DNA from: Syntrophales bacterium
GTDB taxonomy: Bacteria; Desulfobacterota; Syntrophia; Syntrophales; UBA2210
DNA: 64,000 nucleotides
Reading direction: 5' to 3'
Assembly: GCA_963662405.2 (NCBI GenBank)
Contig: CAXXKT010000001.1
Span: 160,001-224,000 of the forward strand
The notes under the pieces were generated by a model, which worked only from the letters and a program-made list of their open reading frames with translations, was not told the DNA's origin and ran no database searches. The position numbers were made by a program, and so were the translations under genes. Of the stretch, positions 1 to 30,670 are shown one piece after another. How positions within the stretch are numbered: position 1 is the stretch's first letter; each line of letters starts with the position of its first letter.

Positions 1-1
1 A

Positions 2-2006: not shown

Positions 2007-2054
2007 GTTGTCAAGCTTCCAGTTAAGAGGGTTGTGCTTTATTACAAACGGTAA

Positions 2055-3048: not shown

Positions 3049-3109
3049 CGTTATTGAAGACCTTGTGCTAATGCCTGAATGATCGGTTTATTCAAAATCT
3101 TTAATGCCA

Positions 3110-4045: not shown

Positions 4046-5014
4046 TCAAGCGAAAGCTGGTTTATAATTTGGGTCATACTTTTTGCCGGATTTCAGGATT
4101 CCAAAGATAAGGTGCACCAGCTTCCTCATTATCGCACAGACAATCACTTTCCCGTTTTTTCCTTTCTCTTTAAGGCGATTATAAAAAGCAATCATAACGG
4201 GATTACATTGGATCGATACCAGTGCCGGCATATACAGAGCTTTTCTGAGCCGCGCATGTCCGATTTTGCATAACCTGGGTTTGCCTTTAATAGATGATCC
4301 TGAAAGTGTTTCCCGTGGCGCAAGCCCGATGAACGCCACCAGTTCCCGCACATGACTGAATTTGTCCAGATCATCCAATTCTGCCAGGATGTGAGGAATG
4401 GTTGCCGTGCCGATACCTGGAATGGAAGCCAAGAGCCCTTTCTTGTTTTTCAGGTTCGGATCCCGATCAATTAGATCAGCAATCTGTTCCCTGATTTTCT
4501 CTATTTCCTTATCAAGATAGTTAATGTGTTCTCTGATCAATGGAATAACTGATTCATGAGCTGCACTTATTCGATTCTTCTCCTGACTTCGCATGTTGAT
4601 CAGACTGTCAACTCGCCTGACCAACGCCCTCAGGGCTCTGATCTCCGGTGAGGGTGGACTCCAGGGATCTGGTCTCATAGCCAGACAGAATCTGGCAATC
4701 AAGGCTGCATCAATCTTATCCGTCTTGGTGCGAATCAACTCGCTCTGGCCAAACCCTTTGATGCGAGCGGGATTGACAACACTGACCACATGGCCGGTTT
4801 CATGGAGATAGATCGCCAATTCCTCTCCATAGTTGCCGGTCGCCTCAAGGCAGGCATGTACCTTATGAACTCCCTGTCTCTCCAGCCAGATCGTCAGTGT
4901 CTCAAAACCTTCCACCGTATTTTTGCAGGTTTTGTGTTTTGTCTTCCCCTCTACAAGAAGTGCAACGTCGAATTTCTGTTTTGCGATATCTATCCCAAGA
5001 ACCGATACTGACAT
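4046..5014 (-). CDS. IS110-family transposase/recombinase, apparently intact (322 aa)
   Basis: DEDD tetrad (GIDIAK, LEATG, KTDKIDA), SIPGIG, catalytic Ser in LSGSS, LRKALYMPA, AIMRKL. Confidence 0.97.
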   Translation of the reverse strand: MSVSVLGIDIAKQKFDVALLVEGKTKHKTCKNTVEGFETLTIWLERQGVHKVHACLEATGNYGEELAIYLHETGHVVSVVNPARIKGFGQSELIRTKTDKIDAALIARFCLAMRPDPWSPPSPEIRALRALVRRVDSLINMRSQEKNRISAAHESVIPLIREHINYLDKEIEKIREQIADLIDRDPNLKNKKGLLASIPGIGTATIPHILAELDDLDKFSHVRELVAFIGLAPRETLSGSSIKGKPRLCKIGHARLRKALYMPALVSIQCNPVMIAFYNRLKEKGKNGKVIVCAIMRKLVHLIFGILKSGKKYDPNYKPAFA

Positions 5015-5061
5015 ACTACAATACTCCCTCGTACATTAATCTAATCTCCAGTAAAATAGCT

Positions 5062-5266
5062 TCGTTCGAATCAACCTTGCAAGTGCAAACTCATTCCCAT
5101 CTGAGAAGGTTTATGATACCGTACGAGTTATTGAACAAAGCTGTGGGAAGAGGATCTACTCTACAAATCATGCTCTCTGGCATCAGGTGAAACACAGATT
5201 CACTCTCCCCATTTTACCCCAGTGTCTCAAGATCTCTTATATCTCCTAATCCCCTTCTAGAACACA
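5062..5266 (-). ncRNA. Predicted IS110 bridge RNA (ends approximate)
   Basis: Non-coding left end contains target guides TTTCACCT (5185-5192) and TTTGTAG (5161-5167) inside a stem/internal-loop/stem, and donor guides ACGGTATC (5115-5122) and GCAAG (5076-5080). Confidence 0.82.
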
Positions 5267-5356
5267 AGGTGAAACACAGATTCACTCTCCCCATTTTACC
5301 CCAGTGTCTCAAGATCTCTTATATCTCCTAATCCCCTTCTAGAACACAAGGTGAAA
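5185..5356. repeat. Exact 82-bp tandem duplication of the IS110 left end (2 units plus 8 bp)
   Basis: AGGTGAAA recurs at 5185, 5267 and 5349; units 5185-5266 and 5267-5348 are identical by eye. Confidence 0.95.
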
Positions 5357-5413
5357 AGTGTGAGATCCGGTATAGTAGGGGCAGATCGAGTGTTTTGCTG
5401 CACCATTCTTCCT
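5349..5413 (+). repeat. Copy B of the diverged direct repeat, interrupted by IS110
   Basis: Removing the IS restores GTAGGTGAAAAGTGTGAG, versus GTAGGTGCAAGATGTGAG in copy A. Confidence 0.85.
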
Positions 5414-6093
5414 CCTTGATACAATTCAAATTGAAGCAATTGTCAAAGATTGTTTTCAGGAAGGGTTTGCCCTGACCAAAGGAGTCCTCGGCCCAAAAGG
5501 ATGGAACCCGGAAGCCGATTAAGACGGGTAGATGGTAAATCCTGCTTGGACATTGTTATTGGTTTTGAAGACCCTCGACAGAAAGAATGCAAGCCCACCT
5601 GAAAAGGCTCAAGCTAAGACCAAGGCGGGAGTGATGGGGTCCGAAATATGCTTTCGCGGTGTGTTAAGGTGGCATTTATCATCTTGATATGAAATGACTT
5701 TCTCGACATGATATATGGTCACATATCCACTGGCTGACGGTCTTGACACTCCTTCCTGCCCGTTTCCATATCCTGGGTTAGGCCTTTTTTTCAAAGAAAA
5801 GGCTTGATTATCTCAAAACGCGAGTATAACTTTATTTGGAGGATGTTGTGTATTTCAACAGTTCTAGAAAATATCTGACTCAGAGGTTCCTATAGCGAAA
5901 TATCCAAGCCCCATTTCTCGCAATAGAGAGGATGGGTTTTGTGTTTTCAGGAGGACTCCTTGCCCGATCAGCGGGTAGGAAAGGTCAGGTGAATTAAGGT
6001 GAACGTTTTTTATGCGTGCGGTGCGCATTGGACACTTTGGAGTGCTCGCGCAATCGAATCGAAAACCATGTAGGACATCAGAGGAGAGGATAC

Positions 6094-11284: not shown

Positions 11285-13978
11285 TTACAGTTTTTCCAGC
11301 GTCACGGCGCAGGCCTTATACTCGGCGGTCTGCGTGGCGGGATCGAATACCGGATTGGTAAGCCAGTTCGCGCATCCCTCGCGGAAATGGAATGCCATCC
11401 AGACCATTCCCGGCGGGACCTGCTCCGTCACCTTGGCCTTGACCTTCACGTCGCCGCGTCTCGACCGGACCCGGATCATCTCGTCGTGGGCGATACCGAG
11501 GCTCCTGGCATCGGCAGCCGATATGTCGGCCGTCTCCTCGGGGAGGAGGAAGTCCATTCCGGCGCGGCCGGTCTGCGTCCGGGTGTGGTACTGGTAGAGC
11601 CGCCTCCCCGTGCTGAGAACGAAGGGGTACTCCTTGTCGGGGACCTCCGCCGGCGGCGTCCAGTCCACCGCATTGAATTGACCCAGCCCGCAGGTGAACT
11701 TCCCTTCCCGGTGGAGAAAAGCCGTACCGGGGTGCTCCTCATCGGGGCACGGCCACTGGAGTCCGTCGTTCTCGATCCGCCGGTATTTGATGCCGCAGAG
11801 GGCCGGCGCCAGGACGGATACCTCGTTGTCCCAGATCTCCTGGGAGCTTTCAGAGGCCCACTCGTGCCCCATGCGTTTCGCGATCTCTCTGAAGATCCAC
11901 CAGTTGGGCCTCGCGATTCCCGGGGGCTCGCTGACCTTTCGGACGCGGTTGACCCGGCGCTCACTGTTCGTGAAGGTCCCGTCGTCTTCGCACCAGGCGG
12001 CGGCCGGGAGGATCACGTCGGCGAATCGCGTCGTCTCGGTGGGGAAGATATCCTGGCAGACGATGAATTCGGCCGCCGCAAGTTCCTCTTCCACCTTGGT
12101 GATATCGGGCTCGCTGTTCGCCAGGTTCTCACCGAAGATATAAAAGGCCTTCACCGCCCCGCTCTTCAGCCCCTCCATCATCTGGGGGATCATAAGACCG
12201 TTCGCGCCGGGAAGATCCTTCACGCCCCATGCCTTCTCGAACTTGGCACGGGCATCGGCGTTGGCGACCTGCTGGTAGCCGGGAAAAACGTTGGGGAGGG
12301 CACCCATGTCGCAGGCCCCCTGGACGTTGTTCTGACCGCGGAGGGGATTGACACCCCCGCACTCCTTCCCCATGTTCCCCAGGAGCATCTGGAGATTCGC
12401 CGTGGACATGACGTTGTTCTTGCCGCAGGTGTGCTCGGTGATCCCGAGGGTGTAGCAGAGCATGCAGGATTCGGCGGCCGCCAGGCGGCGGGCCACGTCA
12501 CGGATCATCTCTTCGGATACACCTGCCACCTCCGCCGCCCGTGACACCGGATATTCGAGGACCTTCTCCTTCAGTTCCTCGAACCCGACACAGCATGTCG
12601 ATATGAACTCTTTATCGTACAGGTCTTCGGTGATGAGGACGTTCATCACCCCGTTCAGAAAAGCGATATCGGACCCCACCTTGATGGGGACATGGAGCGA
12701 GGCGAAGTCGACCAGGGGCTGTCTCCGCGGATCGACCACGATCAGCTCGGCCCCTTTGCGCACGGCATTCTTGAGGAAGGTCGCCGCCACGGGGTGGGCC
12801 TCGATCATGTTGGTGCCGATGCAGAAGAACATCTTCGCCCGGCTGAACTCGTCAAAGGAATTGGTCATGGCCCCGGAACCGAAGGAAGCCGCCAGACCGG
12901 CGACTGTGGGGGCGTGTCAGGTACGGGCACAGTGATCGATGTTGTTTGTCCCCAGCACCGATCGGAAGAGTTTCTGCATCTGGTAGGAGTCTTCGTTGAT
13001 GCTGCGGGCACAGCTGACACCGGCGATGGCATCGGGCCCGTCCTTTTCGATGATCTCCTTGAACTTGGAGGCGACGAGATCCAGGGCCTCGTCCCATGAG
13101 GCCTCCCGGAAATCCCCTCCCTTCTTGATGAGGGGCGTGGTCAACCGGTCCTCCGAGTAGATAAAGTCATAGGCGAAGCGTCCCTTCACACAGAGACGGC
13201 CCTTGTTCGGCGCGCCGTCCTCGACGGCGGTCACCTTGGCAACCTTTCCTTCCTTGTTGACATGGAGCCACATCTGGCAACCCACACCGCAGTAGGGACA
13301 GGTGGTACGCACCTTTTTCATATCCCAAGGGCGCCCCTTGTACCGCGATTTCTTCTCGATCAGGGCACCGACGGGGCAGACCTCAACGCACTGACCGCAA
13401 AAGACACAGTCACTATCGAAATAGGGCTGATCGGTTCCCGCGATGATCTTCAGATCCGATCCCCGGTAGCCGTAGCTGAGGGCCCGGTTGACCACGAGTT
13501 CGTTGCAGGCCTGGACACAACGGCCGCAGCGGATACACCGGGTGAAATCGCGGATGATAAAGGGATTATCATCTTCTTTCGGGTACGGCTGCGGGCTGCT
13601 GGCGAAGGGGACATAGTCAACCTCGTACCGGTAGGCCAGATCCTGCAGCTTGCAGTTGCCGTTCGCCTCGCAGGAGATGCACTCATGAGCGCCGCTGGCG
13701 AGGAGAAGTTCCACATTCAGTTTCCGCGCCCGGCGGACCCGGTCCGACTCGCTCCATATCTCCATACCCGCCGTCGCCGGCGTGCTGCAGGCGGCAACGA
13801 GGGATCGTGCCCCCGTCACCTCGACCAGGCACATGCGGCATGCACCCGTGGGTGTGGCGCCCTTCAGATAGCAGAGCGTCGGGATGTCGACTCCGTTGTC
13901 CGTTGCGACATCGAGAATTGTCTGCCCGGGCTCGAACGCAACGGGTTTCCCGTCCAATTGTAACGTTGCTGTGGCCAT
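11285..13978 (-). CDS. fdhF: Second selenocysteine formate dehydrogenase alpha subunit (897 aa); joins ORFs 12917-13978 and 11285-12868
   Basis: In-frame TGA at 12917-12919 in DHCART-U-HAPTVAGL; same Fe-S and pterin-binding motifs. Confidence 0.95.
12887..12905 (-). promoter_or_regulatory. Bacterial SECIS hairpin
   Basis: AGTCGCC-GGTCT-GGCGGCT, 11 nt after the TGA on minus strand. Confidence 0.88.
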
Positions 13979-17646: not shown

Positions 17647-17688
17647 GGGAAGGGGCACGGCCCTTTACACAGGGCCGTGCCCCTTCCC
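17647..17688. terminator. Long GC hairpin after the beta-oxidation genes (terminator or REP-like)
   Basis: GGGAAGGGGCACGGCCCT-TTACAC-AGGGCCGTGCCCCTTCCC; no U-tract. Confidence 0.6.
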
Positions 17689-17787
17689 TCGCCCGGCACG
17701 AAACCGCGGACTGCCTCCGTGCGAATCCCTTCAAAGCCCAGTCAACCGAACCCGTCGGCGCGGTGGCATTTTTCCGGAGAAACTGAC

Positions 17788-18183
17788 ATGATCCCCAAAG
17801 GTGTTCGGTACGGGTGGTATGGAGGAATTATCGGAGGATACCTGTTCCTGCCGACCGGTTCTCTGATCTTCCTGTTCACGCAACACTACGGATATGGCGT
17901 CATATGCATGGCGGTGTATATCGGCATAATCATGTATGCCCTTCTGGTCGCGCCGTGGAAGTATCCCGACACCTCCTATGGAAAATTGCTGATCCCGGTT
18001 ATTGCTCCGCTGGTCATTATCTCCCTGAGCATCGCGGTCGTGCGATTTGAATACGGGGGACAAACGATACGTTTGTGGCAGCTTATCTTTCTCATTCCGG
18101 TTTTTCTTGTCCCGGTCGTAACCACATGGAAAACGACATACCAAATGGTAACGGGTGATGACAACATTGGTTCTTCTGATTGA
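17788..18183 (+). CDS. Small 4-TM hypothetical membrane protein
   Basis: GGAGA RBS, hydrophobic segments, APWKYPDT motif. Confidence 0.65.
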   Translation: MIPKGVRYGWYGGIIGGYLFLPTGSLIFLFTQHYGYGVICMAVYIGIIMYALLVAPWKYPDTSYGKLLIPVIAPLVIISLSIAVVRFEYGGQTIRLWQLIFLIPVFLVPVVTTWKTTYQMVTGDDNIGSSD

Positions 18184-18326: not shown

Positions 18327-18710
18327 ATGAATCAGACATTAAAAAATCAGAAGGGTTTTACCTTGATCGAGATCATTGCGGTCCTGATCATCCTGGGTAT
18401 CTTGGCGGCGGTAGCCATTCCGAAGTATATGGATCTGACGTCTGACGCCCAGAAACGGGCCCTGGAAGGGGCGCGGGCCGAGGGCCTGTCGACGGTCAGT
18501 CTCGCCTACGGAAAACTGATGCTCTCGAATAGCGGCACCGCGACGGCCGCTGATATCGTTGCCTATGCAACTGCGAACCCTCCCGCAAGCGATGAATTCA
18601 GCTATACCTTTGCGACCAGCGGATCTAATGTGCTGGTGACGGTGGGCGGCAAGGCAGGATCTGATTTTGCGGGGGCGACTGCTGTCACCAAGACGTGGAA
18701 GAGACCATAA
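18327..18710 (+). CDS. pilA: Type IV pilin, probable major pilin (127 aa precursor)
   Basis: AAGGAGG RBS; KNQKG/FTLIEIIAVLIILGILAAVAIPKY class III signal. Confidence 0.85.
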   Translation: MNQTLKNQKGFTLIEIIAVLIILGILAAVAIPKYMDLTSDAQKRALEGARAEGLSTVSLAYGKLMLSNSGTATAADIVAYATANPPASDEFSYTFATSGSNVLVTVGGKAGSDFAGATAVTKTWKRP

Positions 18711-18837
18711 TCTGCTTACAACACACAATCATCGTTTTCCCGGCCCGGGCAAGTCTCCACCTTGCCTGGGCTTTTTGTGCACCTGTAACCCCCAAAATCC
18801 GGGGTGATGACTGATCGGAGCCGTTTGCACGAACATC

Positions 18838-20919
18838 TTACCGGCATACCGACATCTTGATGCACTCTGTAATAATGGGGATAATGACTTCCGGCTCCGG
18901 TAGGTATACCGGCAGCGATGTCTCTTTCTCGACCCGCTCAATCAGGTCATGCCAGTCCTGTGATCCCTTCAGACAGATGAGCTCCTCGATGGTTCGCGAG
19001 AGGGCGTCGGAGGCGCCACTGATGGCATAGAGTTCGACCAGCGCGAATTTTCCTTCCAGGCTGTCCGGTTTTTTCTCCTCATACCGTTCCCAACAGACCG
19101 TTGCCGGGCGAATCTTTCCTTTGCTAAGAAAAGACTCCCCCAGGACACGGAGGGCACCCGCCAGATCCGGATCGAGCGCCAGGGCATGGCGGGCCTCCTC
19201 AACCGCCTGATCGTACTTCCCCAGCTTGAGCAGGACTACTCCCAGGGTACAGTGAAGAGAGGCGTTTTCCGGCCATGACGAGAGCGCCGCCGTGATCGTA
19301 TTGTGAGCTTCCGAAATATCACCCTTCCGAGTGAGACACGCGGCAAGATCATTGTAGATGGGCCAGTACCCGGGATAGGCCTCCAGGGCGGACCGGAAAA
19401 ATGTCAGTGCCGTGTCATACTCACCCTTGATATACAGATGATGAGCCCCGAGGTTATAGAGGTTCACCCCCCGGTTCGAAAGATTCATCTGCCGGTTCAG
19501 CTTCAGTGCCCGGGAAAACGTCTCATAGGCTTCGTCGTACAGTCCCAGACGCACGTAGGCCGTCCCCAGGTTGTTATAAGAGCGGCTCGATGCGGGGGCC
19601 TTGTGGACATTGTCCGACCAGAGAAGCAGGGGGGACTGAAAGAGCGTGTTCCGAAGGGAAACGGTGTGACCCTGTGCCCAGAGCAGAAACACACACAGCG
19701 CCGCCGTCGTAATCTGGAGCCGTTTCGTATATGAAAAGTAATCCAGGATCCGGACGATGAAGATGGCGACCGGGACAAAAAACAGCATCGACGGTATATA
19801 GTTCCTGTGCTCGTAAATGAGCTCCAGCGGGATGATGGAACCTTCAATGACGTGATTGAGAAAAAAGAAGAGGATACAAAAAGAGATAAGGGGTCTCTTC
19901 CGGGAGAGGTATGCGGCAAGGGTGACGGTACCGGCGATGAGGATAATGGCCGGCAGGGTATCCCAGGGCGACAGGAGCGAGTGCGACAGTTCGATATCGT
20001 GAATCAGCGCCAGCCGGGAACTGACGGGATACAGGAGGAGCGTGACGTACCAGACGATAACCCGTGGTTCCGTGAGAAGCCTCTCGGTCATCGTGAAGGG
20101 ACGATTTTCATACCCGGCCAGAAGCCTTGAAATATCAACATACCACAGACCGACTGCCAGAACGCCCAAAATGACGGGAACGAGGACCATGGCATTCTTT
20201 TTGATATTTTCGCGCGTCACTCCCTGGATCAACAGAAAATCATAAAGCCATATGCTGACCGAGAGCATGACAGCGTTTTCCTTGGCGGCAAAGGAGAGTA
20301 CCGCCGAGAGGACACACAGCCCCCAGAAGCATGTCCGCCTCCACGGTCCGTCGGTCATTCTCCCCTTGAGGTAGAAATAGAGGGCCATGATGTACAGGAG
20401 CCCGGCCAGGCTCGCCATCCGCTGGACGATATAGGTGACAGCAGTTGTCTGCACCGGGCTGGTTGCCCAGAAGACCGTGGCGAGGAGCGCGATACCGTAG
20501 GAGGCGGAATCAGATCGCTCACGGACCATTGGAAGCTTCAACGTATTGTACAGAAAGAGAAAGAGAAAGAGCGATGCCAGGTAATGAATCCCGAAATTGA
20601 CGATGTGATATCCCACGACATCCAAACCGCCGACATAGTAGTTCAGGGCGAAGCTGAGATACGAAAGGGGCCTGCCGATAGAGTCTTTCCCCGGTTCATA
20701 TAGCGTCTTTGCTATGTCGGCCCGGTCAAGGGTCTTCAGAAAGATATTCCTGTTTTCGACGATATTCGGGGTATCGTCGAATTGCCATGCGCCATGAAAG
20801 CTGTTTCCGTAGATGACAATCAGAAAGAGGAAGAGTGTGATACCGACAAAGAGATACCGCCTTCCTTCGGGGAACCGTTCTCCCCAGCGCAGATCGAATC
20901 CGTCGTCTCTCGTGATCAT
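18838..20919 (-). CDS. TMTC-like polytopic membrane protein with C-terminal TPRs (putative GT-C protein glycosyltransferase), 693 aa
   Basis: WQFDD acidic motif after TM1, RPLSYLSFALNY, AVTYIVQR, KENA, EHRNYIPS, TPRs (YNNLG, LYNLG); ATGA overlap with upstream gene. Confidence 0.85.
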   Translation of the reverse strand: MITRDDGFDLRWGERFPEGRRYLFVGITLFLFLIVIYGNSFHGAWQFDDTPNIVENRNIFLKTLDRADIAKTLYEPGKDSIGRPLSYLSFALNYYVGGLDVVGYHIVNFGIHYLASLFLFLFLYNTLKLPMVRERSDSASYGIALLATVFWATSPVQTTAVTYIVQRMASLAGLLYIMALYFYLKGRMTDGPWRRTCFWGLCVLSAVLSFAAKENAVMLSVSIWLYDFLLIQGVTRENIKKNAMVLVPVILGVLAVGLWYVDISRLLAGYENRPFTMTERLLTEPRVIVWYVTLLLYPVSSRLALIHDIELSHSLLSPWDTLPAIILIAGTVTLAAYLSRKRPLISFCILFFFLNHVIEGSIIPLELIYEHRNYIPSMLFFVPVAIFIVRILDYFSYTKRLQITTAALCVFLLWAQGHTVSLRNTLFQSPLLLWSDNVHKAPASSRSYNNLGTAYVRLGLYDEAYETFSRALKLNRQMNLSNRGVNLYNLGAHHLYIKGEYDTALTFFRSALEAYPGYWPIYNDLAACLTRKGDISEAHNTITAALSSWPENASLHCTLGVVLLKLGKYDQAVEEARHALALDPDLAGALRVLGESFLSKGKIRPATVCWERYEEKKPDSLEGKFALVELYAISGASDALSRTIEELICLKGSQDWHDLIERVEKETSLPVYLPEPEVIIPIITECIKMSVCR

Positions 20920-21845
20920 CTCCTGCTCCCCGTCAGTTCCCGTGTAAGAAGAAGGCTGAAGACCGGCCCCAGGACAAAAATGGGGATCAGCGAGGCCGCC
21001 CTGATGAGGAGTGACGCCATGAAACCCATCCCGGCACCCATCCCCAGGAATTCCGAGGCGAGCGTGGCAATGGCCTCCGAGATACCGAGGTTCCCCGGCG
21101 TGACCCGGATAAAGATGGAAAAACTGAAAAATATACTGATCACGAAAGGTAGGCCGAACGACACGGGACCGCCGGAGAGCGCATTGAACGCCAACCAGAA
21201 CGCGATCCCGTTCAGGAGGACCGTGGCGGATGTACACAGGGCAAGTCTTGTCAAGATCGCCGGGTCCTTTCGTATCAGGAGCCATCCTTCAACAGCGCTG
21301 TTGAGAAAAGCGATCGCGGGGTGTTCTCCGGGAACCCTGACGGCGGGCATCACCCCACAGAATGAAAAAATCAGTACCATCGCCACAAAGAACAGGATCA
21401 ATTCCTTCGAGTACGCCGCCTCCTCCGCCAGGAGCACAACTCCGGCAATCCCCGCAATCCCGGAGATCCACCAGTAGATCAGGTAGCTGGCCCCGAGGAC
21501 CGATACAAATTTCGCATAGGGGAAAGAATGCCGATACTTCAAATAGGATGCCCGGGCGAACATCCCACCGGCAAAGGGGGTAATGTAGTTTCCCATGGCG
21601 GTGACGAAGGGGAGTCCGAACCACTCTTTCGCCCTCAGCACAACACCGAACTTGGACGCGACCACCCGCAGCAGGAGACCGTTAAAGGCGTGAAAAAGGA
21701 GTAGAACCGCGATCAGTTCCGCTGTCGTGATCAGGTTGATATGCTCGAGGTAGCCGAACAGATGACGCTGGGATACGAGGGAAGCCGCGATGGCAACGAC
21801 CGAAACCACCGTCGCGCATATTATCCATATGTGTCTTTTCCCCAT
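20916..21845 (-). CDS. Lysylphosphatidylglycerol-synthase-TM / flippase-like (UPF0104) membrane protein
   Basis: MGNYITPFAGG..RA.YLK, TPGNLGISEA; multi-TM. Confidence 0.85.
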   Translation of the reverse strand: MGKRHIWIICATVVSVVAIAASLVSQRHLFGYLEHINLITTAELIAVLLLFHAFNGLLLRVVASKFGVVLRAKEWFGLPFVTAMGNYITPFAGGMFARASYLKYRHSFPYAKFVSVLGASYLIYWWISGIAGIAGVVLLAEEAAYSKELILFFVAMVLIFSFCGVMPAVRVPGEHPAIAFLNSAVEGWLLIRKDPAILTRLALCTSATVLLNGIAFWLAFNALSGGPVSFGLPFVISIFFSFSIFIRVTPGNLGISEAIATLASEFLGMGAGMGFMASLLIRAASLIPIFVLGPVFSLLLTRELTGSRR

Positions 21846-21991
21846 TGTATCGCGAACCCCGTGTTACCGAACCATTATCCGTCTTTTTGGAAAGTGATAC
21901 CTCTTCAGTTTTCGATGCTACTCTGTGCCCGTCTTCCCTGCCAATCATATTCGGCAGAGCCCTTGCTCACCATATCGTGCCCGTTTTGTAT

Positions 21992-23074
21992 TCAGGCATA
22001 CCGTCTCAGGTATGCCACTATACTGTCAGAAGGTGAAACAGCGCTCCTTATCGGACCTATCCGATATCGACCGGAGTGCCTGATAAAATCTACGGTTCTG
22101 TTTTTATCATAATTGCTTATAACGACATTTCCCTTCATCCCTTCGGTCCGTTCCGTCACCCGCCGCAACAAGAGACAGGGTTTCCCCAGGTAATAGCTCT
22201 CTTCCTGATTGCTTCCCCCGTCAGTGACCAGGCATGTCGACCGGTTGAGGAGGTGAATAAAGGTAAAATAGTCGTAGCGGGGGTGAAGCTCGATGGAGGG
22301 ATTGGTTTCCAGACGTTTTCTCAGATTGAAGCGGGCAAGCGCTCGATCGGTAACCGGATGGAGGATAAAGACAACCCGGATATACCGGGCAACCGTCTCG
22401 ATCAGAGACAGTGTCTGTTCAAAGGAGGAACGTGAGCACAGATTCTCGAAACGGTGAACACTGGCAATGCAATACGTTCTGTCGGGAATGCTCATCCTGG
22501 TTGTTTTCTCCTGCAGGGCGCGGTTCAGAGCGTCAAGCAGTGTATTGTGTTCGGTATTGATTTTGATACCCTTTTGTTTTTTCAGATTATGTACAGCCCA
22601 CTGCCCCGGACAGAAGTAGATGGCGGACAGGCGGAAGGTTATGCGCCGGATCAGCTCTTCAGGAAAAGGATTCCACAGGTCAAAGGAGCTCAGGCCAGCC
22701 TCTACATGCGCAACCGGAATGCGCGCGATTCGCCCCATCACCCCCCCTACAAGCGTGGAAAAGGTGTCACCGTGAACGAGGATAATTGAATCCCTCCCCC
22801 GGCCCCTCTGGAACAGGCCGGTTCTCCGGGAAAAGGTCTTCAATGACAGTTTCACGATCCACACCAGCATGGAAGGGATGGATGTGATCTCTCTGCCGGA
22901 ATGCAGGATGAAATCCGGTGATTTAATAGCAAAGTTTTCGCGCAGGTCATCCATGGTTTCCCGGTGCTGACCTGTCAGGATGAAGGTGTACGGAATGTTC
23001 TCCTCTTGGAGCCGGAGCATCACCGGTGCCATCTTGATCAACTGAGCCTTTGTTCCAATTATGATATGTATCAT
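21992..23074 (-). CDS. UDP-N-acetylglucosamine 2-epimerase family protein
   Basis: GTKAQLIKMAP, TGQH, VHGDT, HVEAGL, PFPEE, HRFEN, TDGGSNQEE. Confidence 0.9.
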   Translation of the reverse strand: MIHIIIGTKAQLIKMAPVMLRLQEENIPYTFILTGQHRETMDDLRENFAIKSPDFILHSGREITSIPSMLVWIVKLSLKTFSRRTGLFQRGRGRDSIILVHGDTFSTLVGGVMGRIARIPVAHVEAGLSSFDLWNPFPEELIRRITFRLSAIYFCPGQWAVHNLKKQKGIKINTEHNTLLDALNRALQEKTTRMSIPDRTYCIASVHRFENLCSRSSFEQTLSLIETVARYIRVVFILHPVTDRALARFNLRKRLETNPSIELHPRYDYFTFIHLLNRSTCLVTDGGSNQEESYYLGKPCLLLRRVTERTEGMKGNVVISNYDKNRTVDFIRHSGRYRIGPIRSAVSPSDSIVAYLRRYA

Positions 23075-23123
23075 TGCCACAGTGGTCTTGTGAAAGTCAC
23101 ACAGAAGGAGTCCCGCATACCGA

Positions 23124-24047
23124 TCAGACGATATCTTTTTCCCCCGCATTATTGTCCCGGGAACGGCATTCTTCACCGGAAGCCTTCGCCCCATCGAACC
23201 GGAGCTGCGCTACCTGTTCCGACACGAGTCCCACCATGAAGACCACCACCGAAACCGTCATCAGCATCGCCGAGGTCGGCCCGTACCGTTCCCCGAGGCA
23301 GAAGATCTTGAAGAGGCCGTACCCCAGCCCCGTGAGGAACATGATACCACTGACGGGGAGGAAAACCCGCATAGGCGAAAAGAGGGTCGCCACCTTGACG
23401 ATGATCAGGAAAAAACGCGAGCCGTCCCGCAGGGGACGGATCTTACTGGTTCCCACGCGGCGGTGGGTCGTCACCGGGACGTAGACGAGGCTGTAACCGG
23501 AACGGACCACCGCCATCGTGATGGTCGTCGGGTAGGAAAAGGTGTTGGGGAGAAGGGATACAAACTGGCGAGCTATATCGGTTTTGATTACCCTGAATCC
23601 CGATGTCAGGTCTTCGATCCTGCGGCGACACATGTACGTGGCGAACCGGCTGTACAACCGGTTCGCTGTCCTGCGCAGGACGGATTGCCTCGAGTCGTTC
23701 CTCCGGGCTCCGACTGCCATGTCATAGGTATCCATCATCTCCACGAGGCGGGGGATATCACCCGGCTCATGCTGCCCATCTCCGTCGAGCGTCACGAGGA
23801 TATCACCCCGGGCGTTCCTGATCCCGGTCTTGACCGCCGCTCCGTTGCCGATGTTATACGGATGAGACAGCACGTGTGCCCCTGCCCGTCTCGCCTCCGT
23901 GGCCGTTTCGTCATCCGATCCGTCATCGATCACCAGTATCTCGCAGCTGCGGCCCATCGTATCCATGACCCGGCGTGTCTCCTCGATAATACCGAAGATC
24001 GCCCTTCCTTCGCGATACGCGGGAATGATGATTGTTATCTCGGGCAT
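23124..24047 (-). CDS. GT2 glycosyltransferase (DPM1-like polyprenyl-phosphate glycosyltransferase)
   Basis: IIIPAY, IDDGSDD, GNGAAVKTG, DGDGQH, DLTSGFR, two C-terminal TM helices. Confidence 0.9.
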   Translation of the reverse strand: MPEITIIIPAYREGRAIFGIIEETRRVMDTMGRSCEILVIDDGSDDETATEARRAGAHVLSHPYNIGNGAAVKTGIRNARGDILVTLDGDGQHEPGDIPRLVEMMDTYDMAVGARRNDSRQSVLRRTANRLYSRFATYMCRRRIEDLTSGFRVIKTDIARQFVSLLPNTFSYPTTITMAVVRSGYSLVYVPVTTHRRVGTSKIRPLRDGSRFFLIIVKVATLFSPMRVFLPVSGIMFLTGLGYGLFKIFCLGERYGPTSAMLMTVSVVVFMVGLVSEQVAQLRFDGAKASGEECRSRDNNAGEKDIV

Positions 24048-24302
24048 GGCATGGGTCTCGCTTTCGTTCGGTCCCCTCTCGGTGGAAACACCCCGTATAG
24101 ATATACTTTCCGACGTACTATTTGCAAGAAGATTCTGTGAAACACATTGACATTTCAACATTATATCCATATAACAACGAGGAAGGACGGCGTTGTCGCG
24201 AGTTCCGGCCGGTGCCCGGCATCAACGAGGTCAATACGATATTGCCCCCGAGGGATACCGGGGTGTGTCGGGGAGGAACGGCACGCACGAAAGGTCTTCA
24301 GG

Positions 24303-24800
24303 ATGGAAACCGCCCTCAGCTCAAGACCGAGAAGTGACCACGGCTTCACCATGGTGGAAGTGATCACCGTTCTCATCATCGTCGGTATCGTGGTCGCAAT
24401 CGCCGTGGTCGGGTTTCTATCAACGGATACCCACGCCACGAAATCACAGTTCGAAATGGTCAAGGCCCACCTCCGCTATGCCCAGGCGCGCGCGATGCAC
24501 TCCAATTCCGCGTGGGGTGTCAACTTCTCCGGCACGCGGAGTTATGACGGCAGGACATACAGCAACTACTGGCTCTATAAAAACGAAGATACCACGACCC
24601 CGGTTCGATTCCAGGTCGAGGATGATTCACGGTATATTGTGGTATTCAGTGACGGTTCCGTCGGGGTCTGGCCGCTTACCATCGGAACAGCGGCGACGGT
24701 CGAGTTCAATAAGTGGGGAAGCCCGGGCTCCAGCACGATCACGATCACGACAAACGCCGGCAATATCGTCATTACCCGGAATACCGGCTATATCGATTGA
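24303..24800 (+). CDS. Minor pilin/pseudopilin (FimT/GspH-like)
   Basis: HG/FTMVEVITVLIIVGI; LRYAQARAM; FNKWGSP. Confidence 0.85.
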   Translation: METALSSRPRSDHGFTMVEVITVLIIVGIVVAIAVVGFLSTDTHATKSQFEMVKAHLRYAQARAMHSNSAWGVNFSGTRSYDGRTYSNYWLYKNEDTTTPVRFQVEDDSRYIVVFSDGSVGVWPLTIGTAATVEFNKWGSPGSSTITITTNAGNIVITRNTGYID

Positions 24801-24817
24801 AAACACAGATCCGTGAT

Positions 24818-26014
24818 ATGGTGTCTGCTATGGGGAAACGATCCAGGCTGAAAAAAACAGGCAAGAGAACCGCCCATTCCCGCATCCGTGATCAGGGGGG
24901 AAGCATTCTCCTGGCCCTCATTATTACCATGGTCATTCTGTCGGTCCTGGCGGCCGCGCTCCTCCCCACCCTGTTCACTTCACAGATGGGACAGGTATCC
25001 GCAGGCGGGGCGATGAAGGCATACTATCTCGCCGAGGCGGGGGGAAGGTACATACTCCCGAGACTGAATGTATTTACGAGCGGAGAATACACCTTTAAAT
25101 TCAGCGGCGGCGACACGTTCTTCATAATAAATAAAATCTCCGCTACGGAGTTTACATCCACGGGTGTTGTCTTCGAGGGTACCGATCTCGAATCGCGTGT
25201 GGCGATTACCTATAAACTGTCGGGCGGTCTCTTCGATTACGGCGTGTTCGGCGGTGAAGAGGTCACGTTTCGCGGTCTCGTTTCCGTCAATGGTAAGATA
25301 GGAACGAACGGGTCCTCGATCAATCCAAACTTTTTTCCGGGAGAAACATTAGTGGGGAAAGACATGACACCGAAATCCCTCCCTTCCGGTGTGGATCGTG
25401 ACGTTGCGGAGAGTGAATGGGAGGATATCGACCAGATCACTGATTCAATCACTTTGGAAGATGGACATCAGTATTTCGCAGATGAAATAAGCCTTTCAGG
25501 ATCCGGTCCTTCCGCACAGGTTCTCACGATAAGCGGGGATGTCGACCTCTGGGTCGATGGACCAATAAGCTTCTCAGGCAATGCTAGGTTGAGAATTGAA
25601 GAGGGGGCTTCACTGAACCTCTATGCCGCGGGATCAACAAACTTTTCTGACTGGGCTCAAGTGCGTTTCGAAGAGGGGGCTTCGCTGACCCTCTATGCCA
25701 TGGAGGACGTTAGTTTTTCAGATCAGTCGGGCACGAATTACTTAATCCCAACGGTACCTGCGGATCATTTTATTGTATATGGGATTCCCGGTTGTAATAA
25801 CATCACTTTTTCCGACTGGTGCGACATTTCCATCGGCGTCTACGCGCCGGATGCCGATATTACCATAAGCGATTTCGTCCATGTTCGTGGGTCGCTCGTC
25901 GGAGAGACGTTTACCATGACCGACTTGGCACACCTGACGTACGATGAGTCTTTACAGAGTATCGGCGACAGCGGTACCAGCACGAGCGTTGTGCAGTATT
26001 TTACGCCGGATTAG
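24818..26014 (+). CDS. PilX-like minor pilin with beta-helix-like C-terminal repeats (start 24818 or 24830)
   Basis: DQGG/SILLALII lacking Glu5, KAYYLAEAG, VYAPDADITI; 24-aa internal repeat. Confidence 0.8.
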   Translation: MVSAMGKRSRLKKTGKRTAHSRIRDQGGSILLALIITMVILSVLAAALLPTLFTSQMGQVSAGGAMKAYYLAEAGGRYILPRLNVFTSGEYTFKFSGGDTFFIINKISATEFTSTGVVFEGTDLESRVAITYKLSGGLFDYGVFGGEEVTFRGLVSVNGKIGTNGSSINPNFFPGETLVGKDMTPKSLPSGVDRDVAESEWEDIDQITDSITLEDGHQYFADEISLSGSGPSAQVLTISGDVDLWVDGPISFSGNARLRIEEGASLNLYAAGSTNFSDWAQVRFEEGASLTLYAMEDVSFSDQSGTNYLIPTVPADHFIVYGIPGCNNITFSDWCDISIGVYAPDADITISDFVHVRGSLVGETFTMTDLAHLTYDESLQSIGDSGTSTSVVQYFTPD

Positions 26015-26048
26015 ATTTACCCGGGCAGGCAATCATCAGGGGAAAGAT

Positions 26049-26480
26049 ATGGTCTCACATTTTAATCAGAAAGGGTTTTCCCTGATCGAGGTTATCGTCA
26101 CCCTCGTCCTGGTAGCCATCGTGGGGGCCATGGTGGTGTCCTTTATGGGGTCAACAACGAGGCAGACCGGGAAGACCCTGGCATGGTTGAGCGATGAATT
26201 CGAGCTGTCTCACGTGATGGAACAAATCGTTGCCGACTACCGGGAGGAACTGAACAGCACCCCCCCGAACTGGGCAACTTTTTTCGGCAGCAGGGACACC
26301 GTGGGCGAGATCAACACCCGGTATGGGGCCGACATTGATGACGTGAATGTAGAGCCAACCGCTTTTCAGGCCGATCCCTCTCCCTCTACCGATTACACGG
26401 AGAACGGGGCCGACAGCTCCGTACAGAAAGTTACATTAAAAAAGGGAAAACAGACACTGATCACCCTCTTTACTGAATAG
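26049..26480 (+). CDS. Minor pilin (PilV-like)
   Basis: NQKG/FSLIEVIVTLVLVAIVG. Confidence 0.85.
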   Translation: MVSHFNQKGFSLIEVIVTLVLVAIVGAMVVSFMGSTTRQTGKTLAWLSDEFELSHVMEQIVADYREELNSTPPNWATFFGSRDTVGEINTRYGADIDDVNVEPTAFQADPSPSTDYTENGADSSVQKVTLKKGKQTLITLFTE

Positions 26481-26497
26481 TCATGCGATAAGGGAAG

Positions 26498-27646
26498 ATG
26501 AAGAAGGAAGCGGGCTTCACACTGATTGAAATCATTATGGTGCTGATCCTGACGGGGATGCTGGTTGCCGCCGCGGGAATCGGCATCATGAGGGGGATCG
26601 ACGGCTATATCCTCTCAAAGGAGTCGTCCCACCTGAGTCAGAAGGCCCAGCTGGCCATGGAACGGATGCGGCGGGAAATGGTCCAGATCCGGGGCATATC
26701 ATCCGCGACCGCTTCTTCCATCGAGTTTACGACACCGGACGGGGCGGCCTCCGCGGGGAGTCGGGGAATCGGCCTTTCCGGGAACGAACTCAAAATTTCC
26801 GTCGGATCGACGAACTGGTCCGGCGGCGACATACTGATCAATGGCGTGAGCAGCCTGACATTGACCTATTACAAGGAAGACGGTTCGTCATGGACGACGG
26901 CAAGCACTATCCGTGAACTGGCCACGATACGAATGGATCTCGTTCTTGATCATTCTATCGAGGGGGCAACACCCCTCCGGGTCACCACCTACGTCAACCC
27001 GCGGAACACCGGGAACCCCCTGGCTCCCGAGGCAGACGGGTCGGGAGGAGCCCCAACCCCGACGACGACCACCACGACAACGACTACCACAACAACCACG
27101 ACGACTACGACGACTACGACCACCACCACGACAACGACTACCACTACTACGACTACTACAACAACTACGACGACCACCACGCTTCCCACGCCCCGATTCT
27201 GGGAATACAGTTGTGACACGACCGATTACGCGACCGTCGCGGCGGGGAATGTGTCGTCAACCCGCGAGCTAAACAGTGCCTCCCTGTATTCCGTACATGT
27301 GGACACGAGTTCTTCCAGATCGGGGACTTCCGGCCCGAACAACTGGGAATTCAACTATATGTACGACTATGCCTGGCTGTATATCGACCGACCGACACGG
27401 GTCCGGTTTCACCTCGATGCCGACAACTGGGGACATGGCAAAAGGATCGCTGTGTACGCGAATGGTGATCTCCTGGACATTTTTACCGGGGACAGAAACA
27501 CGCGATCATACGACGGTTGGAACTGCGATACGGGGTACTTTACCGAATACAATGACGAGGACAACGTGAAGATCGAACTGAGACGGATCTGGTCCAGTGA
27601 CGGTGAACTGCATATCGATGACGTCCATATAGACTGTGACGACTGA
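26498..27646 (+). CDS. Minor pilin (PilW-like) with 40-Thr linker and extra C-terminal domain
   Basis: KEAG/FTLIEIIMVL, QKAQLAMERM, VNPRN, then poly-Thr and an aromatic/Asp-rich domain. Confidence 0.88.
   Translation: MKKEAGFTLIEIIMVLILTGMLVAAAGIGIMRGIDGYILSKESSHLSQKAQLAMERMRREMVQIRGISSATASSIEFTTPDGAASAGSRGIGLSGNELKISVGSTNWSGGDILINGVSSLTLTYYKEDGSSWTTASTIRELATIRMDLVLDHSIEGATPLRVTTYVNPRNTGNPLAPEADGSGGAPTPTTTTTTTTTTTTTTTTTTTTTTTTTTTTTTTTTTTTTTTTLPTPRFWEYSCDTTDYATVAAGNVSSTRELNSASLYSVHVDTSSSRSGTSGPNNWEFNYMYDYAWLYIDRPTRVRFHLDADNWGHGKRIAVYANGDLLDIFTGDRNTRSYDGWNCDTGYFTEYNDEDNVKIELRRIWSSDGELHIDDVHIDCDD
27062..27181 (+). repeat. (ACN)40 poly-threonine coding tract
   Basis: 120 bp using all four Thr codons in irregular order. 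Confidence 0.95.
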
Positions 27647-27696: not shown

Positions 27697-29022
27697 CTAC
27701 GATTTCACGCTATCTTTCACCCGCTCGGCTATCTTTCGCACCCGATCCATCGCCTCGTCCATATCGATCGTGAGGAGCCGGCGGTCTTCCATGACCGTCT
27801 TCCCGTCTATGATCACCGTCTTGACGTCCGATCCGCTCATGGTGTAGGCGATGTGGGAATATTCGTCATAAAGCGGCGTCAGGTGGGGCTTGTTCAGATC
27901 GATGATAATGATATCCGCCCGCATCCCCTCTTTCAGTGACCCCACCATGTCCCCCATCCCCAACACACGGGCGCCGTCCCGCGTCGCCATCCGCGTCACC
28001 GTCTTCGCGGACATCACCGTGGGATCGAGACGTGCCACCTTTTCAAGCCTCGCTGCCGTGGCCATCTCTCCGAACATGTCGAGATCGTTGTTGCTGGCGC
28101 AGCCGTCGGTCCCCAGACCGACAATAATACCGTGCTCCATCATCCTCGTTACCGGGGCCACTCCCGAGGCCAGCTTCATGTTGCTTTCGGGGTTGTGAAC
28201 GACCTTGCAGCCGTGGTCGGCAAAGATCCGTATGTCCTCATCATCCATGCAGACGCAGTGAAAGGCAAAAAATCGCTCGTCGAGACACCCCAGATCCTTC
28301 AAAAAGGAAACCGCCCCCATCCCGAACCGTTCCTCCAATTGCTGTTTTTCACCCCGGTTTTCGAGGAGGTGAATCGCGAAGGGGATCGCGTACTCATCGG
28401 CCAGGGCCTTCGCCTCCTTGATAACGGAGGGGGAACAGGTGTACAGTGTGTGGGGTTCGACCATGATGTTCACGAGAGGATTCCCCGCCCACTTTTTAAT
28501 CAGCATCCGCGTATACGCCAACCCCTCAGCGGGGGTCTTGGAATTGGGTGAAGGGAAATCGAAGAGCCCCTCCCCGAGGAGGCAGCGCATCCCCGCCCGG
28601 CGGGCGGCCTGGGCGGTCTCGTCCTCGAACATATACATGTCGCAGAAGGTCGTCGTTCCCGATCGGATCATCTCGGCGCAGGCGAGCAGGCTCCCCCAGT
28701 AGGCCAGTTCGGGATCGACATTCCGCGCCTCCGCGGGAAAGATATAGTTATTCAGCCAGTCCATCAATTCCATGTCATCCGCCAGCCCGCGGAAACAGGT
28801 CATCGCCGCGTGCGTATGGGCATTGATCAGACCGGGCATGACCAGACAGTCGCGGGCGTTGATGATCCTGCTCCCTGAATAGCGCCCCTCTATCTCTTCA
28901 GTGGTCCCGACTGCGACGATTGTGTTTCCATTGATGGCAAGAGAAGCGTCACGAATAATAGTGTCCGCTTCGTTCGATGTGAGAATCCGCCCCCCCGATA
29001 TAACGATGTCAACTTCCCGCAT
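27697..29022 (-). CDS. mtaD: Amidohydrolase, MTA/SAH (5'-deoxyadenosine) deaminase family, copy 1
   Basis: PGLINAHTH, FRGLADD, EMIRSGTTTFCDMY, HLLEN, HNPESNMKLASG, GTDGCASNNDLD. Confidence 0.88.
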   Translation of the reverse strand: MREVDIVISGGRILTSNEADTIIRDASLAINGNTIVAVGTTEEIEGRYSGSRIINARDCLVMPGLINAHTHAAMTCFRGLADDMELMDWLNNYIFPAEARNVDPELAYWGSLLACAEMIRSGTTTFCDMYMFEDETAQAARRAGMRCLLGEGLFDFPSPNSKTPAEGLAYTRMLIKKWAGNPLVNIMVEPHTLYTCSPSVIKEAKALADEYAIPFAIHLLENRGEKQQLEERFGMGAVSFLKDLGCLDERFFAFHCVCMDDEDIRIFADHGCKVVHNPESNMKLASGVAPVTRMMEHGIIVGLGTDGCASNNDLDMFGEMATAARLEKVARLDPTVMSAKTVTRMATRDGARVLGMGDMVGSLKEGMRADIIIIDLNKPHLTPLYDEYSHIAYTMSGSDVKTVIIDGKTVMEDRRLLTIDMDEAMDRVRKIAERVKDSVKS

Positions 29023-29067
29023 CTTGATTTCGTCCTCTTGTCCTTGTAAGCAGACATTTCCGGAGCA

Positions 29068-30393
29068 TCACGATTTCACGCTATCTTTCACCCGCTCGGC
29101 TATCTTTCGCACCCGATCCATCGCCTCGTCCATATCGATCGTGAGGAGCCGGCGGTCTTCCATGACCGTCTTCCCGTCTATGATCACCGTCTTGACGTCC
29201 GATCCGCTCATGGCATAGGCGATGTGGGAATATTCGTCATAAAGCGGCGTCAGGTGGGGCTTGTTCAGATCGATGATAATGATATCCGCCCGCATCCCCT
29301 CTTTCAGTGACCCCACCATGTCCCCCATCCCCAACACACGGGCGCCGTCCCGCGTCGCCATCCGCGTCACCGTCTTCGCGGACATCACCGTGGGATCGAG
29401 ACGTGCCACCTTTTCAAGCCTCGCTGCCGTGGCCATCTCTCCGAACATGTCGAGATCGTTGTTGCTGGCGCAGCCATCGGTCCCCAGACCGACAATAATA
29501 CCGTGCTCCATCATCCTCGTTACCGGGGCCACTCCCGAGGCCAGCTTCATGTTGCTTTCGGGGTTGTGAACGACCTTGCAGCCGTGGTCGGCAAAGATCC
29601 GTATGTCCTCATCATCCATGCAGACGCAGTGAAAGGCAAAAAATCGCTCGTCGAGACACCCCAGATCCTTCAAAAAGGGAACCGCCCCCATCCCGAACCG
29701 TTCCTCCAATTGCTGTTTTTCACCCCGGTTTTCGAGGAGGTGAATCGCGAAGGGGATCGCGTACTCATCGGCCAGGGCCTTGGCATCCTTGATAACGGAG
29801 GGGGAACAGGTGTACAGCGCATGGGGTTCAACCATGATGTTGACGAAGGGATCGTCCGCCCACTTTTTAATCAGCATCCGCGTATACGCCAACCCCTCCT
29901 CGGGGGTCTTGCAACTGGGTGACGGAAAATCGAAGATCACCTCCCCGAGGAGGCAGCGCATCCCCGCCCGGCGAGTCGCCTGGGCGGTCTCGTCCTCGAA
30001 CATATACATGTCGCAGAAGGTCGTTGTCCCTGATCGGATCATCTCGGCGCAGGCGAGCAGGCTCCCCCAGTAGGCCAGTTCGGGATCGACATTTCCGGCT
30101 TCCGCGGGAAAGATGTAATTGTTCAGCCAGTCCATCAACTCCATGTCATCCGCCAGCCCGCGGAAACAGGTCATCGCCGCGTGCGTATGGGCATTGATCA
30201 GACCGGGCATGACCAGACAGCCACGGGCATCTATACTCGTACGCCCCCTATAGCGCCCTTCAACCTCCCTCGATAGGCCGATATCGACAATCGTATTTCC
30301 ATTGATGGCAAGAGAAGCGTCACGAATAATAGTGTCCTCTTCGTCCAATGTGAGAATCCGCCCCCCCGATATAACGATGTCGACTTCCTGCAT
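29068..30393 (-). CDS. mtaD: Amidohydrolase, MTA/SAH deaminase family, copy 2 (tandem duplicate)
   Basis: Same motifs and same length (441 aa); 1371-bp period. Confidence 0.88.
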   Translation of the reverse strand: MQEVDIVISGGRILTLDEEDTIIRDASLAINGNTIVDIGLSREVEGRYRGRTSIDARGCLVMPGLINAHTHAAMTCFRGLADDMELMDWLNNYIFPAEAGNVDPELAYWGSLLACAEMIRSGTTTFCDMYMFEDETAQATRRAGMRCLLGEVIFDFPSPSCKTPEEGLAYTRMLIKKWADDPFVNIMVEPHALYTCSPSVIKDAKALADEYAIPFAIHLLENRGEKQQLEERFGMGAVPFLKDLGCLDERFFAFHCVCMDDEDIRIFADHGCKVVHNPESNMKLASGVAPVTRMMEHGIIVGLGTDGCASNNDLDMFGEMATAARLEKVARLDPTVMSAKTVTRMATRDGARVLGMGDMVGSLKEGMRADIIIIDLNKPHLTPLYDEYSHIAYAMSGSDVKTVIIDGKTVMEDRRLLTIDMDEAMDRVRKIAERVKDSVKS

Positions 30394-30582: not shown

Positions 30583-30670
30583 GCCTGGGTGGCGGAACTG
30601 GTAGACGCAAGGGACTTAAAATCCCTCGAAGCTTGCCTTCATGAGGGTTCGATTCCCTCCCCAGGCACCA
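30583..30670 (+). tRNA. tRNA-Leu(TAA)
   Basis: Acceptor GCCTGGG/CCCAGGC plus ACCA; D-loop GGAACTGGTAGAC; anticodon arm AGGGA-CTTAAAA-TCCCT; long variable arm; GGTTCGATTCC. Confidence 0.97.

Follow-up and report, generated by a model that had tools for sequence, protein, structure and literature searches.

A likely pilin O-glycosylation cassette with an exchangeable sugar gene in a Syntrophales pilin locus

The closest described relative of the system treated here is TfpW of Pseudomonas aeruginosa group IV, a GT-C protein of 646 aa (AAM52060.1) with 11 predicted transmembrane (TM) segments, a DDX motif and C-terminal tetratricopeptide repeats (TPR), which is encoded directly after pilA and O-links D-arabinofuranose (D-Araf) to Ser/Thr of the pilin from a lipid-monophosphate donor (bioRxiv 10.1101/2020.04.19.049825). 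Pilin glycans of P. aeruginosa are also known to block phage (PMC11841053). In this work we analysed a stretch of 64,000 nucleotides of a Syntrophales bacterium (contig CAXXKT010000001.1; G000:C1:160001-224000), hereafter the window, in which positions 18327-27646 hold a major pilin gene, an inverted cassette for a GT2, a UDP-GlcNAc 2-epimerase-like protein, a PF03706 protein and a GT-C/TPR protein, and four minor pilin genes. Our findings suggest that the cassette is likely a dedicated system that O-glycosylates the pilins of a type IV filament resembling the mannose-sensitive haemagglutinin (MSHA) pilus, with a lipid-phosphate sugar as donor. We consider this likely because the last protein has a predicted GT-C fold and an invariant DD motif, and because its clade, in contrast to a superfamily control, is linked to pilin genes.

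Compared by description, the window protein and TfpW share the GT-C design, 11 TM segments, a DD in the first loop, a C-terminal TPR part, a similar size (693 vs 646 aa) and a major pilin gene as neighbour, and also O-linkage to Ser/Thr from a lipid-monophosphate sugar, which was demonstrated for TfpW and is predicted here. The initial annotation of the locus had contrasted it with TfpW, a contrast that fails on the shared design. The core idea, a GT-C/TPR enzyme encoded beside pilA that glycosylates the pilin, is thus already established by TfpW and the design is not new. The two systems differ in donor supply, which in the window would depend on an in-locus GT2, a variable gene slot and the PF03706 protein, whereas TfpW uses an unlinked DPPR-synthase/DprE1/DprE2/GtrA pathway; family scans of the cassette, with the rest of the genome not searched, found no DPPR synthase, DprE1 or DprE2. 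In addition, the window gene is convergent to its pilin gene whereas that of TfpW is co-transcribed with it, and the filament is MSHA-like rather than type IVa. The full YX6PFX7P motif of TfpW (periplasmic loop 4) is absent from the window clade, being found in 0/101 and 0/93 homologues of two sets (A1 and A2), in which only the YX6P core (Y291, P298) is present.

Animal TMTC1-4 (CAZy GT105) also combine an 11-TM GT-C domain with TPR, and DD, RP, R167, KE and D308 of the window protein match parts of M1-M5 among the seven TMTC motifs (M1-M7) tabulated in PMC7801869, a report that already mentions full-length uncharacterised prokaryotic TMTC homologues, including a Deltaproteobacteria example. 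Unlike TMTC1-4, however, the window protein has no PF08409 domain and does not keep SHKSY, RxD, DW and PxxP, and it is unlikely to use dolichyl-phosphate (Dol-P) mannose or to act on cadherins. A literature search, with most subscription journals outside its reach, returned no paper joining pilin and TMTC, and none of the literature matches listed covered both TfpW and TMTC.

Similar operon logic has been described in streptococci, where the Pgf system of S. mutans comprises the GT-A protein PgfS, the epimerase PgfE and the GT-C proteins PgfM1/M2, and S. pyogenes has GtrB/PgtC2 (PMC12041528). These systems resemble the window in joining GT2, epimerase and GT-C and, by prediction, in the undecaprenyl phosphate (Und-P) donor and Ser/Thr-rich targets, the streptococcal acceptors being comparable to a poly-Thr minor pilin of the window; they differ in that PgfE is a 4-epimerase (GalNAc), the GT-Cs are YfhO-type and the acceptors are adhesins or membrane proteins (PMC12041528). 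The likeness extends to Dol-P-based assembly in euryarchaea, since the window GT2 scores highest with AglJ among NCBIfam families and AglD carries a C-terminal PF03706 domain, although archaeal transfer is N-linked by AglB and that of the window is predicted to be O-linked by a TPR-bearing GT-C (PMC5898192). PF03706 proteins are predicted flippases of glycosylation pathways, their stand-alone role being itself a prediction (PMC5898192). Within the Desulfobacterota, and again by description, the pilA cluster of a cable bacterium also unites pilA with TPR genes and sugar-modifying enzymes; in the available portion of that report the TPR proteins are ascribed to protein-protein interaction, and no GT-C role or glycan is assigned (PMC10580974). 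The literature search returned no work on an MSHA-type filament in Deltaproteobacteria and nothing related on pilin glycosylation in Syntrophus, and PMC7762298 yielded nothing of relevance either.

The GT-C/TPR protein and its link to pilins

The gene order described by the initial annotation was confirmed with the ORF list and family scans, and every part was in its place, including the DD motif and the ATGA overlap (20916-20919) at which the GT-C start overlaps the stop of the PF03706 gene. The helix pattern of the structural models indicates about 11 TM helices followed by TPR, with the TPR Pfam matches starting near residue 440; the helix count and the sidedness were read from the model and from the position of basic residues in the loops. 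When modelled at full length (pLDDT 84), the protein matched TPR proteins first, and its residues 4-454 also aligned with yeast STT3 (Z 21.5, root-mean-square deviation (rmsd) 4.8, 339 aligned). Since TPR proteins dominated that search, the TM domain was modelled alone (pLDDT 92, pTM 0.91). Among 48,161 chains, its matches at ranks 1-20 were all GT-C (Z 19.2-9.3), led by AglB (3waj; Z 19.2, rmsd 3.9, 305 aligned), Pmt2 (18.4), STT3B (18.2) and ArnT (18.0), and the next match (Z 6.4) opened a series of unrelated folds. By this model the TM domain is a GT-C fold, an outcome for which structure prediction had been named beforehand as the check. Foldseek with the same model gave no match below E 0.001, its uppermost rows being GT-C, and searches with the TM-domain sequence, as a single sequence or a profile, found no match in the PDB, with none in plasmids or PADLOC either. 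No TMTC or TMEM260 chain was among the fold matches listed, which does not exclude them.

D48-D49, in the first outer loop after TM1, is present in 101/101 (A1) and 93/93 (A2) homologues, and K213, Y291, P298 and Y374 are also invariant in the 101. The homologue search matched 3,644 of 8,000 scored candidates, the closest named ones belonging to Syntrophales and other Desulfobacterota, and a few bear the automatic name "protein O-mannosyl-transferase". By Atlas features the protein is close to PMT_2 clusters (score 0.98) and to a DUF1736 cluster from eukaryotes (0.91, 184 features in common). The PMT_2 Pfam was matched by 9/93 family members, the window protein not among them, and TMTC_DUF1736 (PF08409) by 0/93 at E 0.01, with no match over cut-off in the genome. 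From the TMTC motifs M2 (SHKSYRP), M3 (RxD), M5 (DW) and M6 (PxxP), only RP (83-84), R167 and D308 are kept, TM9 having no PxxP; K213-E214-N215 and E370-H-R-N-Y374 are alike but not identical to M4 (KE(T/Q)xxT) and M7 (ERxxY). The "TMTC-like" label of the initial annotation therefore stands for architecture and DD, and judged by motif and Pfam the protein is not a TMTC.

A scan of species genomes gave at least 607 GT-C/TPR matches, of which the best 80 were kept, corresponding to 78 loci; these are kin, and several share one genome. A major pilin gene lies within 1 kb of the GT-C gene in 54/78 loci and anywhere in the locus in 61/78, and among loci that extend 1.5 kb or more to either side of the gene these values are 40/51 and 46/51. 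The 54 pairs (36 convergent, 18 tandem) involve pilins of two types, MSHA-like and type IVa PilA, spread over the tree. In this tree (FastTree) the window enzyme groups with MSHA-like pairs of convergent orientation, inside a clade linked to pilins (support 0.954). The pilin/GT-C pair is also present in Desulfonema magnum (L008), a relative in culture. For a control, a broader superfamily profile was run against a phylum sample of 121 genomes, and 60 regions were chosen among the matches listed (126 more unlisted), with high scores and long contigs favoured; only 7 of the 95 superfamily genes in these regions had a pilin within 1.2 kb. The expected co-occurrence with pilins elsewhere was thus found, beyond what chance would give, as a mark of the window clade; given the control, membership of the superfamily alone names no acceptor.

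Other arrangements were observed in these data. Three loci of the phylum sample (L142, L149, L153) have a GT-C/TPR gene wedged between two same-strand pilin-like genes, and in G108 and G062 (L146, L158) six to eight GT-C paralogues follow one another in tandem in a pilin-free vicinity. In the window genome itself, C1:576505-592815 (L079, L080) holds four GT-C/TPR paralogues, three of which hardly differ in the TM part, together with GT2s, GtrA and a further PMT_2-type GT-C. This glycosylation cluster adjoins a type II secretion gene cluster, whose pseudopilins are the nearest pilin-like genes, about 22 kb from the paralogues (C1:576-593 kb).

With respect to the filament, the block of the relatives adjoins genes for PilM-like, secretin, ExeA-type ATPase, extension ATPase and platform proteins, and machine genes occur in 34/78 loci. 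In L001 and L005 the machine operon is contiguous with the pilin block, in the order PilM-like, PilO-like (a label that carries no family match), small protein, secretin, ExeA-type ATPase, extension ATPase, platform and pilins, which we take to resemble msh operons. The secretin orthologue of L001 scores 118 with MshL (TIGR02519; cut-off 250) and 317 with PilQ (cut-off 284), and the filament is therefore called MSHA-like on gene order, with a secretin that scores as PilQ rather than MshL. In the window genome the machine orthologues (52-84% identity) are intact at C1:1531431-1540235, 1.35 Mb from the pilin block, which indicates that in this split locus the glycosylation genes stayed with the pilins.

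The donor module and its exchangeable slot

The initial annotation had named the GT2 "DPM1-like"; the GT2 assignment holds, and the protein is better read as a polyprenyl-phosphate sugar synthase of the ArnC/AglJ/GtrB type. Its best NCBIfam matches are AglJ (116 bits) and PpgS (99 bits), both far below cut-off, and its solved relatives are ArnC (best, E 1.9e-21), then DPM synthase and GtrB (sll0501, E 4.4e-9), a likeness at family level only. The epimerase-like protein matches PF02350, and the motifs HGDT, HVEAG, FPEE, HRxEN and DxG..QEE of the solved enzymes are kept and are invariant in 119 homologues, whereas the TIGR00236 equivalog cut-off is missed (192 vs 210.15 bits). The catalytic residues within these motifs (HGD, HxE, PEE, HRxE, QEE) are presumably those of the E. 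coli enzyme. In this subfamily GTKAQ replaces the GTRPE of solved enzymes, and past a few near relatives the homologues among the matches listed share about 50% identity with it, some of them coming from Patescibacteria and DPANN archaea. Neither a GtrA-type flippase nor a YfhO-type GT-C occurs in the cassette, which has PF03706 instead and gave no YfhO match.

A GT2 orthologue (at least 65% identity) was found in 8/78 GT-C loci, each of which also has the flippase orthologue; the epimerase was found in only 3/78. Searched on its own, the GT2 occurred in 42/201 genomes of the order (44 matches, 40 read), and in 481 metagenome stretches, of which the best 80 were kept; these two sets and the 78 GT-C loci overlap. 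Genomes gave 14 complete blocks from GT2 through flippase to GT-C and metagenomes 12, and a convergent pilin comes next in 12/14 and 9/12 of them. Between GT2 and flippase lies a slot whose occupants (genome / metagenome blocks) are the epimerase (8 / 8), GT4s (5 / 3) or DegT (1 / 1), often with added methyltransferases. Epimerase and GT4 never occur together in the 26 blocks, nor do an epimerase-like gene and GT4b in 90 GT2 loci. The epimerase is the sole gene of the slot in the window, L001 and L285, and a GT4 in L179 and in L259, which is of the same genus as the window genome. The occupants alternate across the GT2 tree, sister GT2s that are 74-81% identical carry a GT4 instead of the epimerase, and the slot epimerases are of two distinct forms (~65-71% and ~40% identity). 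Relatives add GT4/GT2 extenders and FkbM methyltransferases, as Haloferax does.

Acceptor, linkage and sugar

We hypothesize that the four proteins work together, in line with the make, flip and transfer logic of the initial annotation, which our results support. The GT2 would load a sugar onto undecaprenyl phosphate; the slot genes (2-epimerase, GT4s, second GT2, methyltransferases, DegT) may supply or extend that sugar and vary the glycan; the PF03706 protein would flip the lipid-linked sugar outward; and the GT-C/TPR enzyme would finally attach it to Ser/Thr of membrane-anchored pilins, with the TPR as its probable substrate-binding part. Variation of the glycan may plausibly be driven by phage pressure, by analogy with P. 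aeruginosa pilin glycans. By composition, 19 Ser/Thr of the mature major pilin (117 aa, coding from 18357) lie past residue 30, and it lacks both Cys and an N-x-S/T sequon. Thr/Ser tracts at the place of the poly-Thr linker in the last minor pilin, a tract that the initial annotation had overlooked, were also found in the close relatives L005, L175, L178, L179, L180, L255 and L259, some of which are the same organisms. A predicted complex of the GT-C protein with the pilin scored 0.02 (mark 0.32), which is no evidence either way.

Several observations weigh against this proposal. By our test 17/78 loci have no major pilin, most of them being truncated where a contig ends, on one side or both, and the 78 loci are themselves the best 80 of at least 607 matches, kin and partly one-genome sets. 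The GT-C/TPR superfamily is present in 64/121 phylum genomes, with up to 15 or more matches each, and its members mostly do not lie beside pilins; the type IVa pilA of the window genome has no adjoining GT-C/TPR gene. The donor module accompanies the GT-C gene in a minority of the 78 loci (flippase orthologue in 9, any PF03706 cluster in 23), and among genome GT2 loci with at least 6 kb downstream a GT-C was found in 14/24 and a pilin in 15/24, so that the GT2 occurs without GT-C. The position of most superfamily members away from pilins would suit an acceptor other than pilin, such as the secretin, other machine proteins, lipopolysaccharide or a glycolipid, with the pilus locus serving co-regulation, and so would the rank of ArnT, a lipid A modifier, among the top folds and the machine genes in the 34 loci mentioned above. 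We nevertheless regard such an acceptor as unlikely, considering that the gene is the direct neighbour of the major pilin gene in either of two orientations and for either of two pilin types, that it stayed with the pilins when the machine genes are 1.35 Mb off, and that a TPR domain would suggest a protein acceptor.

Two further readings of the GT-C/TPR protein appear very improbable. AglB and STT3 are top fold matches and N-x-S/T occurs in 37/59 related pilins, as N-linked glycans made in the manner of AglB/PglB would lead one to expect; however, the window pilin is sequon-free, WWD is absent from the TM part, the TPR occupies the place of the oligosaccharyltransferase C-terminal domain, and AglB, Pmt2 and STT3B lie within 1 Z unit, with ArnT close. 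Equally hard to credit is a TPR scaffold for pilus assembly that replaces an MshN/PilF-type protein and keeps a vestigial GT-C part: no stand-alone TPR gene was seen among the genes that commonly flank the machine operon and the TPR part resembles PilW/PilF in fold, as any TPR does, but the outer loops keep invariant residues, the DD among them, and translational coupling ties the gene to the lipid-sugar module.

The identity of the sugar is a separate question. The initial annotation had proposed O-linked N-acetylmannosamine (ManNAc), and as a sub-case of pilin O-glycosylation the GT2 could take UDP-ManNAc directly, the pilin then bearing single O-ManNAc residues. This is possible, although we would not call it probable. 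In its favour are the three cassettes with the epimerase alone between GT2 and flippase and no second transferase, the catalytic motifs of solved 2-epimerases, and the recruitment of two distinct epimerase forms to the slot. Against it, a second GT2, the likelier user of UDP-ManNAc, follows the epimerase in 15/16 other epimerase blocks; closely related sister GT2s are paired with a GT4, as is the same-genus cassette; when 23 epimerase cassettes were set against 15 with a GT4, no alignment column of the GT2 told them apart (highest accuracy 0.74, against a 95th percentile of 0.76 with shuffled labels; L200 left out, its epimerase match not being the adjacent gene); the SHKSY residues modelled as mannose contacts in TMTC are not kept; the epimerase is found in so few GT-C loci; and among 33 high-quality genomes with the GT2 a PF02350 gene was found in 25, with no match in 8, these being metagenome-assembled genomes in which absence is unproven. 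On this comparison the proposal is weak. For the window genome taken by itself, ManNAc would be the first guess, since its slot holds only the epimerase and its cassette has no second transferase, but it is not established, because relatives swap the sugar-related gene. No O-ManNAc protein linkage was found in the literature search, which most subscription journals lay beyond.

The slot "epimerase" might instead, whatever the acceptor, be a repurposed GT-B enzyme that extends a lipid-linked primer, the work of the GT4 in sister cassettes. This would account for the mutual exclusion of epimerase and GT4b, each filling the slot alone, and perhaps for GTKAQ where solved enzymes have GTRPE. It is improbable, however, given the invariance of the 2-epimerase catalytic motifs in 119 homologues and the lack of sequence similarity to GT4b; moreover, we know of no transferase in PF02350.

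The locus in its surroundings and what it may mean

The features of the locus are collected in Table 1. The major pilin and GT-C genes are convergent across a gap of 127 bp, and the second of the four minor pilin genes has a weak N-methyl match (E 0.05). A small membrane-protein-like ORF (17677-18183, +) directly upstream of the pilin had no Pfam, NCBIfam or PADLOC match. In the gap between GT2 and the minor pilins a TTGACA-17-TATAAC element (24147-24175, +), with the final T absent, was spotted by eye; it is not among the 5 matches of a promoter-pattern scan, for which 4.8 were expected by chance.

Table 1. Positions of the pilin genes, the cassette and associated elements in the window
Feature	Position	Strand	Basis
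Major pilin-like gene, likely acceptor	18327..18710	+	PF07963 E 4.6e-9; 127 aa precursor
Terminator-like hairpin, 12 pairs and T tail, in the gap that separates the pilin gene from the convergent GT-C gene	18742..18772	+	Pattern match only
GT-C membrane protein with C-terminal TPR, predicted pilin O-glycosyltransferase (TfpW/TMTC-like)	18838..20919	-	693 aa; model and Pfam
Codons of the D48-D49 motif	20773..20778	-	Invariant in homologues
PF03706 protein (LPG_synthase_TM; AglD C-terminal / MprF flippase-domain family), predicted lipid-sugar flippase	20916..21845	-	E 2.1e-17
Non-hydrolysing UDP-GlcNAc 2-epimerase-like gene, GTKAQ subfamily, variable-slot occupant	21992..23074	-	PF02350 E 1.8e-53; TIGR00236
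GT2, polyprenyl-phosphate sugar synthase-like (ArnC/AglJ/GtrB type), first cassette gene	23124..24047	-	PF00535
Minor pilin, GspH/FimT-like	24303..24800	+	Pfam and NCBIfam
Minor pilin with DUF7305 domain, putatively PilX-like	24821..26014	+	Pfam
Minor pilin	26049..26480	+	PF07963
Minor pilin with mucin-like poly-Thr linker	26498..27646	+	Pfam, composition
40-Thr run (residues 189-228), candidate second O-glycan acceptor	27062..27181	+	Sequence of last minor pilin

Elsewhere in the window, two formate dehydrogenase-like ORFs (11285-13978, -) belong to one reading frame of 897 aa, interrupted by a single in-frame TGA at residue 354 (HCART-U-H), as would be expected for selenocysteine. Tandem genes for 441-aa amidohydrolases (27697-30393, -), 93% identical and nearly identical in the C-terminal half, point to a recent duplication or gene conversion. 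A tRNA-Leu(TAA) lies at 30583-30670 (+), and positions 1-6000 have a G+C of 0.42-0.50, below most of the window.

What distinguishes the locus from the described systems is a variable-glycan donor module, predicted to be primed by the GT2 and flipped by the PF03706 protein, that would serve an MSHA-like filament in Syntrophales relatives. A bolder combination, which we put forward tentatively and consider on balance unlikely, is that of a bacterial O-ManNAc route with a minimal archaeal-style lipid-monophosphate assembly, in which GT2, exchangeable slot, PF03706 protein and TMTC-related transferase would give the MSHA-like filament of these syntrophic bacteria a strain-specific glycan coat. 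If pilin O-glycosylation by the cassette is right, its four genes in 5.2 kb and its small candidate acceptor would make a tractable test case for the uncharacterised bacterial TMTC-like family, and it would put to the test the flippase function that is predicted for PF03706 proteins standing alone. The slot variants within one genus, epimerase only and GT4 only, would offer a clean test of pilin glycan diversification, plausibly against phage.

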